From positions 9,293 to 73,292 of the forward strand of contig DYJA01000014.1 of the NCBI GenBank assembly GCA_020723345.1: DNA of 64,000 nt, in the 5' to 3' direction. Origin of the DNA: Candidatus Aquidulcis sp. Lineage in GTDB: Bacteria; Chloroflexota; Anaerolineae; UBA4142. This document shows positions 1,567-55,660 of the stretch, piece after piece (the stretch's first letter is position 1; every line of letters begins with the position of its first letter). The notes below the pieces were generated by a model. It made no database searches, was not told the origin of the DNA, and saw nothing but the letters and a program-made list of their open reading frames with translations. The position numbers and the translations under genes were made by a program.

Positions 1567-1634
1567 CGTGATTCGTGATACGTGATGCGTGATGTGTGAT
1601 GTGTGTGATCACGTATCACGCATCACGCATCACG
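1567..1634. repeat. heptamer-array hairpin (CGTGATK x6 / MATCACG x4)
   Basis: cgtgatt cgtgata cgtgatg cgtgatg tgtgatg tgtgtgatcacg tatcacg catcacg catcacg. Fills the spacer between the tusA stop and the membrane-gene start. Confidence 0.9.
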
Positions 1635-1636
1635 CC

Positions 1637-1879
1637 CTATGCGATCTTCTTGACCAGAAAGTGATACTCTTTCCCTTGCTGCTCAATCGCGAGCAATTCG
1701 TTGCCGGTCGTGCGCGCCCACGCGGGAATGTCCGCCATCACGCCGGGGTCGGTCGCGATGCCTTCGATCGTTTGTCCCGCTTGCATTTTCTTGACCGCCA
1801 TCGAAAGTTTGACGACGGGCATCGGGCACAACAAGCCCTTGAGATCGAGCACTTGATCGGGTTTCACTTGGTCAGCCAT
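1637..1879 (-). CDS. tusA: TusA/SirA-family sulfurtransferase
   Basis: ORF 1637..2101 trimmed to MADQVKPDQVLDLKGLLCPMPVVK... (ATG 1879, GGAG upstream). Carries the CPxP active-site motif typical of TusA. 80 aa. Confidence 0.9.
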   Translation of the reverse strand: MADQVKPDQVLDLKGLLCPMPVVKLSMAVKKMQAGQTIEGIATDPGVMADIPAWARTTGNELLAIEQQGKEYHFLVKKIA

Positions 1880-1920
1880 TGTTACTACTCCTCGTTGTAT
1901 TTTTCTCTTGAGAGGCGTGG

Positions 1921-1970
1921 TGCGTGTTCCGTGTTCCGTTCTACGCATCACGCAACACGCAACACGAATC
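1921..1970. repeat. heptamer-array imperfect hairpin (GCGTGTT/CCGTGTT vs ACGCAAC)
   Basis: tgcgtgtt ccgtgtt ccgttct acgcatc acgcaac acgcaac acgaatc. Lies between the DsrE-like stop and the tusA start. Confidence 0.8.
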
Positions 1971-1974
1971 GCAT

Positions 1975-2454
1975 TTAGATGAACAACGTCGCTTTGGAAT
2001 GACTCGCTTCTTCGATGAACGCGGCGACGCCGACGGGCGCGGTGGCGGCGGGCAGCATTTTGTCTGTACCGATTTCGAGCACGTCCATGCTCATCTGGCA
2101 CGGCATAATCTTGACGCCCAGCTCGACTGCCATGTCGCGCAGTTCGTGCAGCGACGCGACGTTCTTTTGCTTCATCATCGTCTTCATCATCCAGCGACCC
2201 ATCCCGCCGAAATTGAAACGCGATGGACCAATCGTGTCGATGCCGCCGCGATTCATCACGCCGAGCATCCGACCGAACAAGCCCTTGCCGGTGAGCGACG
2301 AATCTTTTTGGATCGCTTTGAGTCCCCAGAACGTAAAGAACATTGTCACGTCCATGCCCGACGCCGCCGCGCCGGTCGCGATGATGAACGCTGCCATCAC
2401 CTTGTCCATGTCGCCGCTGAACACAACCATCGAAAGTTTGTTGTCTGTTGCCAT
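1975..2454 (-). CDS. DsrE/DsrF-like (COG2210, YrkE-type) sulfur-relay family protein
   Basis: ORF trimmed to MATDNKLSMVVFSGDMDKVMAAFIIATGAAASGMDVTMFFTFWGL... (ATG 2454, GGAGA upstream). Sequence pattern is typical of DsrE/F-like proteins found next to TusA. Confidence 0.8.
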   Translation of the reverse strand: MATDNKLSMVVFSGDMDKVMAAFIIATGAAASGMDVTMFFTFWGLKAIQKDSSLTGKGLFGRMLGVMNRGGIDTIGPSRFNFGGMGRWMMKTMMKQKNVASLHELRDMAVELGVKIMPCQMSMDVLEIGTDKMLPAATAPVGVAAFIEEASHSKATLFI

Positions 2455-2490
2455 TTCGATTCTCCTTTGAATTTTGATTTCCTTATTCTT

Positions 2491-53793: not shown

Positions 53794-53814
53794 TTGCTAA
53801 TCGGCATCAAGTTC

Positions 53815-53843
53815 TTGACAATCTATGCAAGCCATTTTACAAT
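53815..53843 (+). promoter_or_regulatory. near-consensus sigma-70 promoter of the RelE/ParE TA operon
   Basis: TTGACA (53815-53820), 17-nt spacer, TACAAT (53838-53843). Confidence 0.65.
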
Positions 53844-53889
53844 GCAAACAGTCCGAATGAGCATTCGCGGCTCTCCAAGGAGAATGGAA

Positions 53890-54363
53890 ATGAAAACCGT
53901 GTTTAGCGACGAAGTTGTTCCTGTTGAAGACTTGAAACGTCGTCAACGATATTGGCTGGCACGCGCGCGCAAGCGCGGTGGATTGACGATTGCCCAAGGC
54001 AAGGTGGCGGATCTCGTCCTTGCCCCACGAGCGATCGTCGCCGCCGGTACGCAAGCGGCGCACCACGCGCAACTGGCAAGCCAATTCTTCCTCGAAATCC
54101 TTGGACTGCATCGCCCTCCATCTGAAAGCGTCGTTTTCCCCTGGCTGAAAGACCTTGACTCCACCGACCAGGAAAACTTCGTCCAAGAGTACATCGAAAC
54201 GCTTGCGCGCTGCGCGTCGAGTGGTCAATGGCAAAACATGGACGAACTCATTGAGGATTGGCAAGCAACTGCCGAAGCGCAGCGCAATCCCGATTTGTTG
54301 AATACATGGCAAACGCGCGGCAATCCAGACGACTATATTCCGGTCGACCGCGCCAATGGCTAA
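53890..54363 (+). CDS. putative antitoxin (Phd/YefM-like N-terminus with ~110-aa C-terminal extension)
   Basis: ATG 53890 lies 7 nt after AAGGAG. The pattern VVPVEDLKRRQRYWLARARKRGGLTIAQGKVADLVLAPRAIV resembles Phd/YefM. Overlaps the toxin gene by 8 nt. Confidence 0.55.
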   Translation: MKTVFSDEVVPVEDLKRRQRYWLARARKRGGLTIAQGKVADLVLAPRAIVAAGTQAAHHAQLASQFFLEILGLHRPPSESVVFPWLKDLDSTDQENFVQEYIETLARCASSGQWQNMDELIEDWQATAEAQRNPDLLNTWQTRGNPDDYIPVDRANG

Positions 54364-54622
54364 CAAATTTCGGGTGATGCTTCGCAAGCGCGCCGTAAAG
54401 GGCTGGCAAGATCTCACTGCTCGTAATCCACAAGGTGTGGCAGAAATCTTGCGCTTTTTGCAAACCACTCCCGAATTGCGTGTGCCAGGCAAAGTGAAAA
54501 AACTCAAAGGCAAGCTCAAAGGGCTTTTGCAGTACGATGTCACTTTTTCCGACCGCATTCAGTATTGGGTGGACAAGGGGCAATCCGTTGTCTGGATCGA
54601 ATACGCTGGCTCACACCCATAA
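54356..54622 (+). CDS. RelE/ParE-superfamily toxin
   Basis: 88 aa. ...KVKKLKGKLKGLLQYDVTFSDRIQYWVDKGQSVVWIEYAGSH is the typical RelE/ParE C-terminal pattern. Confidence 0.75.
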   Translation: MANKFRVMLRKRAVKGWQDLTARNPQGVAEILRFLQTTPELRVPGKVKKLKGKLKGLLQYDVTFSDRIQYWVDKGQSVVWIEYAGSHP

Positions 54623-54628
54623 TCCACG

Positions 54629-55660
54629 CTATCCAGTCGCGATAATTCCCTCGGCGCGCAACCACTCCTCAGTCCGTCGCATTCCCTCTTCAAACGACAC
54701 GCGCGGCGCGTAGCCGAGCAACCGTTTCGATTTTTCGATGTCGAAGACGACGCGGTGCGAATAAAATTCGACGCTCGAACGCGCGACGCGCGGCGGAAAA
54801 CCGTCGACGCGCGCGAGCATTTCGAACGGCAGCGTCAGCGCGAGCGCGACCACGCGCGGCATTCCAAACAATCGCCTGCCGCCGAGCATGCGCGCGTACG
54901 CGCCGTAAAATTCGCGCCACGTCACGCCGCGTCCTTCCGCGCCGACAAATGCCTGACCAATTGCCGCGTCGTTCTTCAGCGCAAGCAAAATCAAGTCAAC
55001 CAAGTTGTCGATGTACACCGCGTTGCAAATTCCGTCGCTGCCGCCGATCAAAACGGGACGACCGCACTTGACGCGCCGGAGCGGCGTCAGCGTCCACGCG
55101 TTCGAGCGAGGTCCGTACGTACACGCGGGTCGGATCACGGTCAAGGCAATTTTATTCGCGCGCGCGAATTGCCACGCCGCACGTTCGCCTTCCGCTTTGC
55201 TGGCGGAATAGAAATCGCCCGTAGGGACGCAATTAATTGCGCCCCTACTCGCGCCCCAACCCAATGGCGAATCCGCGTGCGCGTCGCGCGGCGGCGGCAC
55301 GCCGTGCGCGTTGATCGTGCTGAGGTGAATGAACCGCGCGACGTTCGCTTCACGCGCCGCGCCGAGCAAATTCAACGTCCCGCCAACATTCACGCGGCGA
55401 TAATCGTCCAGACGCGCGCGCCCGCTTTGCATCGCCGCGCAGTGAATGACGACGGCGCAACCATCCACCGCGCGGCGAACCGCATCAACATCAACAACAT
55501 CACCGATCGCGATTTCGGAAACGTGATGCGTGATGCGTGATGCGTCGCGTACGAGTCCCCGAACGACTGCGCCTTCTTCCGCGCGTAATCGCTCTGCCAA
55601 TCGTCTGCCGATGAAACCGTTCGCGCCGGTGATCAAGATTCGCTGATCGCGTAAATTCAT
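54629..55660 (-). CDS. NAD-dependent epimerase/dehydratase family protein
   Basis: Track ORF trimmed to MNLRDQRILITGANGFIGRRL... (ATG 55660, ATGA overlap with the upstream stop). YSASK catalytic motif. Carries two repeat-derived segments. Confidence 0.85.
   Translation of the reverse strand: MNLRDQRILITGANGFIGRRLAERLRAEEGAVVRGLVRDASRITHHVSEIAIGDVVDVDAVRRAVDGCAVVIHCAAMQSGRARLDDYRRVNVGGTLNLLGAAREANVARFIHLSTINAHGVPPPRDAHADSPLGWGASRGAINCVPTGDFYSASKAEGERAAWQFARANKIALTVIRPACTYGPRSNAWTLTPLRRVKCGRPVLIGGSDGICNAVYIDNLVDLILLALKNDAAIGQAFVGAEGRGVTWREFYGAYARMLGGRRLFGMPRVVALALTLPFEMLARVDGFPPRVARSSVEFYSHRVVFDIEKSKRLLGYAPRVSFEEGMRRTEEWLRAEGIIATG
55221..55248. repeat. GGGCGCAATT-family palindrome inside the epimerase CDS
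   Basis: gtagggacgcaattaattgcgcccctac, read in frame on the minus strand as ...SRGAINCVPTG... just before the catalytic YSASK. Confidence 0.85.
55522..55546. repeat. three tandem CGTGATG heptamers inside the epimerase CDS
   Basis: cgtgatg cgtgatg cgtgatg cgt, read on the minus strand as ...SRITHHVS... Confidence 0.8.

Follow-up and report, generated by a model that had tools for sequence, protein, structure and literature searches.

Hairpins with tandem heptanucleotide arms fill spacers between genes in an Anaerolineae chromosome and differ in their units between relatives

Tandem repeats with a period of 7 nucleotides (nt), and long hairpins whose arms consist of such repeats, recur throughout a 64-kb stretch of contig DYJA01000014.1 (64,000 nt, hereafter the window). 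The genes of the window mark it as part of the chromosome of a member of the Anaerolineae (Chloroflexota): an M16 peptidase encoded in it is 78-86% identical to homologues in Anaerolineae/Chloroflexota metagenome-assembled genomes, and its housekeeping genes include Lon, GlnA, citrate synthase, PFK, malate/lactate dehydrogenase, TusA/DsrE, an ABC transporter and an ECF sigma factor. Thirteen window hairpins consist of a tandem array followed by an array of the reverse complement, giving stems of 20-35 base pairs (bp), and such inverted pairs predominate (13 of 17 loci), while 3-4 loci are direct arrays only.

Our own scan (at least 3 copies, at most 15% mismatch, runs of period 1-3 left out) recovered 18 period-7 arrays in the window, whereas 30 dinucleotide-preserving shuffles had 0.47 on average and never more than 2. 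The tandem heptamers pointed out in an earlier note on this DNA are real, and their arrays are far commoner than in shuffled sequence. Periods 4, 5, 9, 11 and 12 stood at expectation, period 6 yielded 3 arrays (0.3 in shuffles), and periods 8 and 10 yielded one each. Tandem Repeats Finder placed period-7 arrays at every period-7 locus that the earlier note had listed, mostly as two adjacent rows with reverse-complement consensus (CGTGATG/ATCACGC at 1567-1635, CAGTATT/CTGAATA at 7057-7122, CAGTTTT/TACTGAA at 44688-44757). The excess of period 7 over periods 6 and 8 also holds in 80 Chloroflexota loci, and 393 kb of metagenome loci, which were chosen for one heptamer family, contained 235 period-7 arrays against 15 of period 6 and 10 of period 8. 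A CRISPR array was ruled out, as the units are 7 nt long and stand head to tail without spacers.

Folding revealed strong hairpins at 12 of the 16 loci that had been listed (1567, 1921, 3202, 7057, 7866, 14689, 22443, 25107, 35395, 39598, 44688 and 51557); RNA minimum free energies there range from -18 to -42 kcal/mol and z-scores from -4 to -13. The remaining four do not fit that description: 32541, 36391 and 53753 are direct arrays without an inverted partner, and 55522 has a weak one (z = -1.6). One further hairpin had been missed, at 47631-47689 (TGACCGC/GCGGTCA). The odd periods are as had been stated (8 at 14731, 9 at 35395, 10 at 3245), and 39598 is additionally irregular (7-8). Units differ by locus, with a few recurring families (CAGTRTT, CGTGATG, AAATCNN), and at least 10 unrelated units occur within 64 kb with no terminus in common. 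We found no good evidence for the A-T-(T)-C core and shared descent of all units that had been proposed, since the most enriched 4-mer over 112 arrays was GACG (3.5x) and several others followed at about 2x. A core of ATC/ATTC or CAGT common to all units is likewise not supported, CAGT being only 2x enriched with several other 4-mers alike.

The arrays also yield spurious open reading frames (ORFs), as the earlier note had said. Because arrays end such ORFs on both strands, gene context taken from raw stop-to-stop ORFs is unreliable, and these were dropped in favour of simple codon-scored gene calls for classing context. On this map 13 of the 17 window loci lie in spacers and the other 4 in coding sequences (CDSs) or overlapping CDS ends, and heptamer-type arrays occupy 13 of the 36 window spacers that are at least 40 nt long. 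For a strict set of 36 heptamer-arm hairpins, drawn from the window and 80 related loci (L002-L081), the contexts were co-directional in 27 cases, convergent in 4, divergent in 3 and within a CDS in 2, which covers every gene context that had been claimed. Since window junctions overall have a similar make-up (49 co-directional, 7 convergent, 7 divergent), the hairpins show no preference for the ends of transcription units.

Within spacers, placement is tight. In the strict set the gap between stop codon and hairpin is about +1 nt at the median (24 of 27 values fall between -15 and +18), and a median of about 16 nt separates the hairpin from the following start, which places its end just 5' of the ribosome-binding site; in an independent metagenome set the stop-to-hairpin median was about 8 nt, and 11 of 44 hairpins lay between convergent genes. 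The hairpins fill short spacers cleanly, beginning at the upstream stop codon and ending just 5' of the next ribosome-binding site. Some arrays continue from the closing codons and stop of the gene upstream, as in GAACAGTAG-GCAGTAT... and TGACGAATGACGAAG....

Near the left end of the window, 5.6 copies of CGTGATR and 4 of ATCACGY (1567-1634; minimum free energy -41.6 kcal/mol, z -8.3) fill the spacer from the stop of TusA (assigned by Pfam) at 1637 to the next start at 1547, both genes lying on the minus strand, and the hairpin at 1916-1970, with 2.4 copies of CGTGTTC and 3.4 of ACGCAAC, stands between the stop of a DsrE-like gene at 1975 and the TusA start at 1879. The hairpin at 3202-3274 lies in a divergent spacer and has a period of about 10, with 2.8 copies of ATCAGTGTTA and their complement (-30 kcal/mol, z -6.1). 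Between the ABC ATPase stop at 7125 and the start of an FtsX/MacB permease at 7049 are 4.6 copies of CAGTRTT and 4.4 of CTGAAYA (7057-7122), ending 7 nt from the ATG of the permease gene, which has no ribosome-binding site. The next junction, from the PFK stop at 7929 to the ABC ATPase start at 7853, holds 3 copies of GAAGGAT and 2.3 of TTCATCC (7866-7928). Around the M16 peptidases, 4 copies of CAGTRTT and 3.6 of ACTGAAY (22443-22500) run from the stop of the second peptidase gene at 22501, whose last codons and stop the array continues, to the next start at 22431, and 4 copies each of AATTCRW and GAATTWC (25107-25176) separate the malate/lactate dehydrogenase stop at 25174 from the first M16 peptidase start at 25097.

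Further along, a hairpin of period 9 at 35395-35457, with 3 copies of CACGAAGGA and 2.8 of CTTCGTGTC, lies between co-directional plus-strand genes (stop 35370, start 35469; -35.1 kcal/mol, z -7.6), and one of irregular 7-8-nt units (AATCAGK) occupies the divergent spacer at 39598-39668 (-32.5 kcal/mol, z -4.4). Convergent stops at 44686 and 44764 enclose 4.4 copies of CAGTKTT and 4.7 of TACTGAA (44688-44757; -40.4 kcal/mol, z -13), and the hairpin at 47631-47689, with 4 copies each of TGACCGC and CGGCGGT, stands just upstream of a start at 47611, with the ECF sigma ORF reading through it. Direct arrays without a partner are those at 32541-32575 on the plus strand (AAATCSA, 3.7 copies), which ends 12 nt before the gene start at 32588 and directly 5' of an AAAGGAG ribosome-binding site; at 36391-36410 on the minus strand (CGTGAWG, 2.7 copies; no hairpin, z -0.7), which covers the last six codons and the stop of gene 36391-37563 (minus strand); and at 53753-53788 on the minus strand (AAATCGA/AAATCAT, 4 copies), at the 5' end of the SurE gene. 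The array at 51557-51627 lies in a divergent spacer and combines 4.7 copies of ATTTMTG with a shorter inverted partner (AAATCATAAATCCAT); its minus strand shows (AAATCNN)n immediately 5' of the start at 51547. Sense arrays of AAATCNN directly 5' of a ribosome-binding site or start were seen at 32547-32573, 51557-51592 and, probably, 53755-53783, and also, as direct arrays that lack an inverted partner, at 114-140 of L002 and 1683-1703 of L013.

The claim that arrays also lie inside CDSs holds at 14689 (a loop of GT39), 55522 (an epimerase), 47631 (the ECF sigma tail) and 36391 (the last codons and stop noted above). The hairpin at 14689-14768 on the plus strand has period 8/16 (2 copies of GTAGACAAGGAAACAC and 4 of ACTTGTCT) and encodes the variable loop ...VGKETRRQGNKSPIHLSTCLLVYLSAC... 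of a full-length GT39 glycosyltransferase. In a relative, L084, the hairpin is retained, with one unit exchanged for another and its stem altered by a double change from G:C to A:T, and L083 (62% identical) has (GTCACCYT)x8 at the same loop position (2190-2260), read as HLVTLSPCHPVTLSPRHLVTLS. These copies inside CDSs are real and old. In relatives the GT39 gene carries repeat-encoded insertions at two variable loops, namely the (GTCACCYT)x8 of L083 and (ACGAATY)n at 8328-8361 of L084, read as ILNYELRITSHES. The direct array at 55522-55546 on the minus strand (CGTGATG, 3.4 copies, with the weak partner already noted) lies inside the CDS of an NAD-dependent epimerase. In the ECF sigma ORF (47611-48219, minus strand), which reads through 47631-47689, the last ~25 residues (TADGRPPTAAAVNGLRSAVKRGVSL) are repeat-encoded, and its stop overlaps the start of the next gene (TGATG). 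The array at the SurE gene is either 5' untranslated region or a 15-residue N-terminal extension, and may be translated as the latter.

Comparison of orthologous spacers, which the earlier note had proposed, revealed that hairpins come and go and that units are replaced at one and the same junction. Between malate/lactate dehydrogenase and the first M16 peptidase the window has AATTCGW, L002, L008, L009 and L012 have GACGRAR, L084 and L014 have TTGGARR, and L013 has AAAAGNN; the distant L014 carries 10 TTGGARR units per arm, and L003, L010 and L011 have no hairpin there. At the junction from the second M16 stop to the next gene, every carrier has CAGTnnn with the last three bases differing (CAGTRTT in the window, GACAGTG in L002 and L012, CAGTAGT in L084, CAGTCGT/CAGTAAT in L009). 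The ABC ATPase/permease junction has CAGTRTT in the window against AAGTCAG/AAGTATR in L084, with four units per arm in both and flanks that are about 90% conserved. At the PFK/ABC ATPase junction the 63-nt hairpin of the window is absent from L084, which has only the 16-nt native spacer TAAAAGGGGAAAGATG, and removing the hairpin from the window spacer leaves a stop, ribosome-binding site and start at normal spacing. Conversely, L012 has hairpins at two junctions that have none in the window. Hairpins are gained and lost, persist at some junctions over wide divergence, and have their units replaced while the arms stay complementary.

Ordinary strong hairpins without tandem units were seen in other window spacers (4154-4184, 9850-9885, 12535-12590, 19585-19617), and at the three such junctions covered by L084 their positions are kept and their sequences altered. 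Long intergenic stem-loops are thus a general habit of the lineage, of which the heptamer hairpins are one subset.

Over short evolutionary distances the arrays are stable. Starting from a homologue of the window's GT39 gene, we obtained a shared syntenic stretch of 19-20 kb in three metagenomes (L084, L085 and L086), which are 99.8-99.9% identical to each other and whose proteins are 66-97% identical to those of the window. Across these 19-20 kb, which include several arrays, they differ by 37 single-nucleotide polymorphisms (SNPs), 1 of them in a hairpin, and by no indel, and there was no copy-number polymorphism among the three; the Logan contigs that carry window proteins are 100% identical to the window and hence uninformative on this point. 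The heptamer hairpins are not hypermutable switches, and the absence of indels led us to reject phase variation.

Nor are they terminators, in agreement with the earlier note's remark that they are not simply so. The heptamer hairpins lack a T-run behind them, and the majority stand inside operons, where they separate genes that must be co-transcribed (the ABC ATPase and permease, the M16 pair with their neighbours). Canonical terminators with A-run, GC stem and T-run are present at other places in the window, near 16.56 kb and downstream of glnA (19585-19617). The strongest evidence on this point comes from a second phylum. Scanning metagenomes with a pattern for the window's commonest family, (CAGTNTT)2CAG-loop-CTG(AANACTG)2, revealed CAGTKTT family hairpins in at least 120 contigs whose G+C content ranges from 33% to 72%. 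Among these contigs, Ga0209027_1000531 (L148, positions 1-13635) is an acidobacterial, Pyrinomonadaceae-like ribosomal-protein operon (L4...L15-SecY-Adk-Map) in which heptamer-arm hairpins stand at about 16 of about 21 cistron junctions. Its units (CAGTTTT, GTGATGA, AAAATCC, AATGGTG, GGGATGA) overlap in part with those of the window, which is suggestive and by a rough count not significant.

The internal anatomy of the hairpins bears out the local homogenisation that had been proposed, both within arrays and between paired arms. Across the 36 strict hairpins, mean identity is 0.84 between a unit and the reverse complement of the unit it pairs with, compared with 0.77 between same-arm neighbours and 0.76 between units of opposite arms that are not partners (Wilcoxon p = 6e-4 for partner versus same-arm identity), an excess that is partly built in, as the set was selected by complementarity. 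At L050 the partner identity is 1.00 versus 0.62, with unit variants in mirror-image order, as expected if a whole array is copied inverted or if pairing is selected. Homogeneity can also be confined to one arm: the 3' arm of 44688-44757 (44725-44757) is 100% homogeneous and its 5' arm is not, and one hairpin of L084 has one mismatch in every unit, both of which are the signature of slippage within one arm. Several arrays fit period 14 better in Tandem Repeats Finder, meaning that two-unit blocks were duplicated.

The arms also obey an orientation rule. Within the 5' arm G outnumbers C in 30 of the 36 hairpins and C outnumbers G in 4, and its purines exceed pyrimidines in 25 and fall below them in 8. 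As [X]n[revcomp X]n reads alike on both strands, this G-first arrangement is a true structural rule and not a strand effect. Folding energies of sense and antisense strands in the window showed no consistent asymmetry.

L050 contains three hairpins within 2 kb (11248-11328, 11755-11833 and 13139-13238). The first two have identical 34-nt stems of TAGATCT units around unrelated loops and each provides the stop of the upstream ORF, and the third shares the TAGATCT unit.

Several published systems resemble these arrays, contrary to the earlier note's view that no named element class has this architecture. Heterocystous cyanobacteria carry short tandemly repeated repetitive (STRR) sequences, reportedly described by Mazel et al. 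in 1990 as direct heptamer arrays used for fingerprinting, and three STRR heptamers are said to have been described in Calothrix. STRR share with the window tandem heptamers, several units per genome and an intergenic position in operons, whereas a hairpin arrangement is not their defining feature and the phylum differs. Heptanucleotide repeats, cyanobacterial STRR, TAACTGA arrays and inverted GGGAATC pairs of Xanthomonas are all on record (PMC4679880, PMC4692102, PMC6749651), and none of these published kinds has a known function or mobility, so that the match to a described family of known mobility or function by which the earlier note would have been refuted did not turn up.

The closest likeness is to the heptameric arrays of Xanthomonas (GGGAATC) and Nostoc PCC 7120 (GGGGAYT) (Rehm et al. 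2015, PMC4692102). Xanthomonas genomes hold 70-75 inverted array pairs each, in convergent orientation and capable of forming stem-loops; arrays in both genera tend to have about 4 units and to stand between co-directional ORFs, and they are transcribed and not linked to mobile elements (PMC4692102). There the G-rich array on the coding strand lies within 50 bp of the stop or overlaps it, the C-rich array precedes the next start, and the repeat type (single or inverted pair) is conserved between species while length varies (PMC4692102). The present hairpins match in the G-rich 5' arm, in beginning about 1 nt from the stop, in having about 4 units to an arm and in the co-directional majority (27 of 36). 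They differ in that Xanthomonas has one dominant G-tract unit, read as quadruplex-forming, whereas many units without a G-tract occur here (none of the window units, such as CAGTRTT, CGTGATG, AATTCGW, GAAGGAT and TGACCGC, contains a tract of three or four G), that the inverted pair is the main form, and that the heptamer itself turns over at the same junction. The window follows the Xanthomonas rules with units that cannot form quadruplexes, which speaks against the quadruplex reading as the general explanation.

TAACTGA direct repeats of marine Beggiatoaceae, some Cyanobacteria and Bacteroidetes come in 2-6 copies, mostly intergenic and directly upstream of starts (MacGregor 2015, PMC4679880), also within ribosomal-protein operons, with some overlapping ORF ends and a single inverted case in 170 (PMC4679880). 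The opposite strand reads CAGTTAT, close to the window's CAGTRTT. The window's (AAATCNN)n arrays resemble the TAACTGA type, being direct and just 5' of a start at 32547, 51557 and possibly 53755, a placement that the hairpin loci do not share. TAACTGA has one unit, almost always direct, whereas many units occur here, mostly as inverted pairs. In surveys of long simple sequence repeats (LSSR), as relayed in PMC4679880 and PMC4692102, heptanucleotides are the most over-represented in many prokaryotes (Mrazek et al. 2007), and 22 (GATAGRA)n satellites were found in Chloroflexus aurantiacus (Subirana and Messeguer 2019, PMC6749651). Our data agree in that period 7 is over-represented and scattered across phyla, with Chloroflexi among the carriers, and L041, labelled a Chloroflexia genome, has (GACGATA)n arrays; the surveys counted direct repeats and do not cover hairpin pairing, placement at gene boundaries or same-junction unit turnover.

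Two functional or mobile palindrome classes also invite comparison. RNase III processing hairpins stand between cistrons of phage T7 early mRNAs and in rRNA operons; the likeness, which lies in long, almost fully paired intercistronic stems of 20 bp or more, is purely one of functional analogy, and RNase III sites are not built from tandem repeats. Repetitive extragenic palindromes (REP) and bacterial interspersed mosaic elements (BIME) of enterobacteria and pseudomonads are imperfect palindromes in transcribed operon spacers that are not terminators, some of which stabilise upstream mRNA. Each genome has one conserved REP consensus of 20-40 bp, marked by a GTAG/CGTC tag and accompanied by a RAYT transposase, none of which was seen here, and REPs lack internal tandem periodicity. 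We rejected REP/BIME on the lack of a single conserved consensus or shared terminus amid the many unrelated units in 64 kb, and the MITE reading (miniature inverted-repeat transposable element) because the filled and empty PFK junctions show no duplication and loops are unrelated between copies. PMC3733652 and PMC2817692 offer general background on REP/BIME.

In the literature searched, which lay largely outside subscription journals, there was no description of a dominant hairpin form with many units, of same-junction unit turnover or of a CAGTKTT hairpin family, and a full-text search for CAGTTTT/CAGTGTT arrays as sequences returned no relevant paper. No Rfam family matched at the gathering threshold and nothing relevant at the E-value threshold, only sub-threshold eukaryotic pre-miRNA models. 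The CAGTRTT hairpins at 7063-7123, 22441-22503 and 44684-44754 scored 27-33 bits against such models, whose gathering thresholds are 63-90, and these look-alike scores reflect only the shape of long, nearly perfect stem-loops. The feature extends a known kind of heptamer repeat to Anaerolineae and at least one acidobacterium, and is only partly new.

The explanation that we favour, and consider somewhat probable, is repeat dynamics with a weak functional overlay, in which the hairpins are local, self-renewing heptanucleotide quasi-palindromes and not a dispersed, gene-like element. Their anatomy suggests that a heptamer in a short native spacer, often one drawn from the closing codons with the stop, or from the purine-rich stretch where ribosomes bind, would be duplicated in tandem by replication slippage, and that the array would then be copied inverted by intramolecular template switching or fold-back, giving [X]n-loop-[revcomp X]n. 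Template switching of this sort is familiar from quasipalindrome mutagenesis. Slippage within arms and copying from arm to arm would renew the units while the arms stay complementary, which is the pattern seen, and relatives' hairpins at the same junction would for that reason differ in heptamer. Because the element fills exactly the space from stop to ribosome-binding site, it would form part of the polycistronic transcript and could fold there into a 20-35-bp stem-loop. Selection would mainly filter tolerated forms (G-rich arm first and C-rich second, about 4 units per arm, no T-run, stops in all frames), and any benefit would be modest at most, the likeliest being a barrier to 3' exonucleases or an RNase III-type site between cistrons. 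The stem-loops would be tolerated and perhaps mildly useful.

Several observations weigh against this explanation. Slippage and template switching were not caught in the act, as no unit was gained or lost among the three near-identical strains L084-L086, and the excess identity of pairing partners would look alike under selection for pairing. A purely mutational origin does not account for a period of 7 rather than 5, 6 or 8, for the G-richer 5' arm, or for hairpins kept at one junction in relatives whose proteins are as little as about 55-60% identical, and it leaves over the recurrence of CAGTKTT, GTGATGR and AAAATCY in genomes of Chloroflexota and Acidobacteriota. Mismatches on the sense strand are, in addition, weakly skewed towards G.U (48, versus 29 A.C, pooled), a weak hint of selection at the RNA level.

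The foremost alternative, which we regard as possible and hold only tentatively, is that these are selected RNA structures of polycistronic mRNAs, acting as RNase III sites, as 3'-to-5' exonuclease blocks that give neighbouring cistrons different stabilities, or as a bridge from stop to start that preserves translational coupling; tandem heptamers would merely be the way in which stems are built and lengthened. RNase III needs roughly 20 bp, as at the T7 early-mRNA sites, and the 20-35-bp stems exceed this. The position inside operons from stop codon to ribosome-binding site fits such a role, as do the retention of pairing as units change (including the double change inside the GT39 CDS), the hairpins of many relatives at the same junction, the ordinary hairpins that hold their positions in L084, the filled acidobacterial ribosomal-protein operon, the permease at 7049 that starts 7 nt past a hairpin without a ribosome-binding site, and the slight G.U excess; most Xanthomonas arrays are, moreover, transcribed (Rehm et al., PMC4692102). 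Against it, presence is patchy (L003 has no hairpin at either of the two M16 junctions, and that at 7866 is missing from the close relative L084), sense and antisense strands of the window fold equally well, some arms mismatch in every unit, and hairpins also lie in divergent spacers and inside CDSs.

In a stronger form, which we think unlikely, the heptamer-arm hairpins would be an actively maintained intercistronic RNA device found across phyla (Chloroflexota, Acidobacteriota, Xanthomonas, cyanobacteria), with a stem adjustable in 7-nt steps, a selected G-first arrangement, cleavage by RNase III or bridging from stop to start, and a 7-nt period that serves as a molecular ruler. If so, the device would set the stoichiometry of operon products, including ribosomal proteins; the G-first orientation might avoid exposing a Rho-loading C-rich arm or false ribosome-binding sites; and the ruler would be a polymerase or a heptad-reading protein.

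A protein of the latter kind underlies a further reading, to which we assign a low probability, namely that some protein, such as one with a cold-shock/S1 fold, reads single-stranded RNA or DNA about 7 nt at a time and uses the arrays as binding platforms, which the hairpin would mask or regulate. The strict period of 7, the limited set of units that recurs across phyla and the sense (AAATCNN)n arrays directly 5' of ribosome-binding sites at 32547, 51557 and probably 53755 would agree with this, and CspB binds heptamer repeats with one protein per heptamer (reviewed in PMC4679880); a protein platform of this sort has been proposed for the TAACTGA arrays. The diversity of units in one genome and their fast turnover at one site fit poorly with sequence-specific binding, and most arrays are locked in duplex.

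More doubtful still is a spread of small mobile palindromic elements (REP/REPIN or MITE-like) by a transposase, with the heptamer substructure secondary. Such a spread would explain why (CAGTNTT)4CAG-loop-CTG(AAYACTG)3-4 occurs three times in the window, why L050 has identical 34-nt stems within 2 kb, why the CAGTKTT family reaches so many metagenome contigs, and why hairpins look like clean insertions into native spacers. Yet conserved termini and target-site duplications are absent, loops differ between copies with identical stems, units grade into flanking coding sequence, and dozens of unrelated units occur in one genome. No transposase was noticed among the window proteins scanned, a part of all ORFs, and no RAYT (IS200-like) domain among 20 of them, with 64 kb of the genome covered; Rehm et al. 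likewise saw no link to mobile elements (PMC4692102).

Terminators or attenuators without a U-tract, which we deem highly improbable, would suit hairpins directly downstream of stop codons, the one between convergent genes at 44688 and the convergent quarter of the metagenome set (11 of 44), and run counter to the missing T-run beside canonical terminators in the same window, to positions within operons such as between ABC ATPase and permease or the two M16 peptidases, to the hairpins between nearly all ribosomal-protein cistrons of L148, and to those in divergent spacers and CDSs. Contingency loci, hypermutable repeats that switch neighbouring genes on and off, are suggested by tandem repeats near ribosome-binding sites and starts with a unit length that is not a multiple of 3, and have hardly any credibility given imperfect units, housekeeping neighbours and three strains without a copy-number difference over 19-20 kb with 37 SNPs.

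The excess of heptanucleotide repeats in bacteria has been known since the 1990s-2000s without an accepted cause or function. The hairpin form is common well beyond Xanthomonas, needs no G-quadruplex units and is found within essential operons; it holds steady from strain to strain, yet from one species to another a given junction has entirely different units, and arm orientation follows a strong rule. Slippage with template switching, stem-loops that serve as RNase III sites or exonuclease barriers, and a heptad-binding protein are now testable alternatives. For annotation, the arrays matter in that they create spurious ORFs and extend real ones (the ECF sigma tail, the SurE N-terminus, the GT39 loop).

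Three minor observations concern the window at large. It contains no tRNA or tmRNA. A 183-bp tandem duplication of 95% identity at 16525-16890 carries a canonical bidirectional terminator (A-run, GC stem, T-run) together with the 3' end of a thiolase gene (16776-17966, minus strand), and at this convergent junction L084 has a single, different terminator hairpin. Finally, the Logan short-read contig L001, which corresponds to window positions 3282-7327 at 100% identity, ends 8 nt from the hairpin at 3202-3274; hairpins of this kind may break short-read assemblies, and what L001 presents is proximity and not cause.

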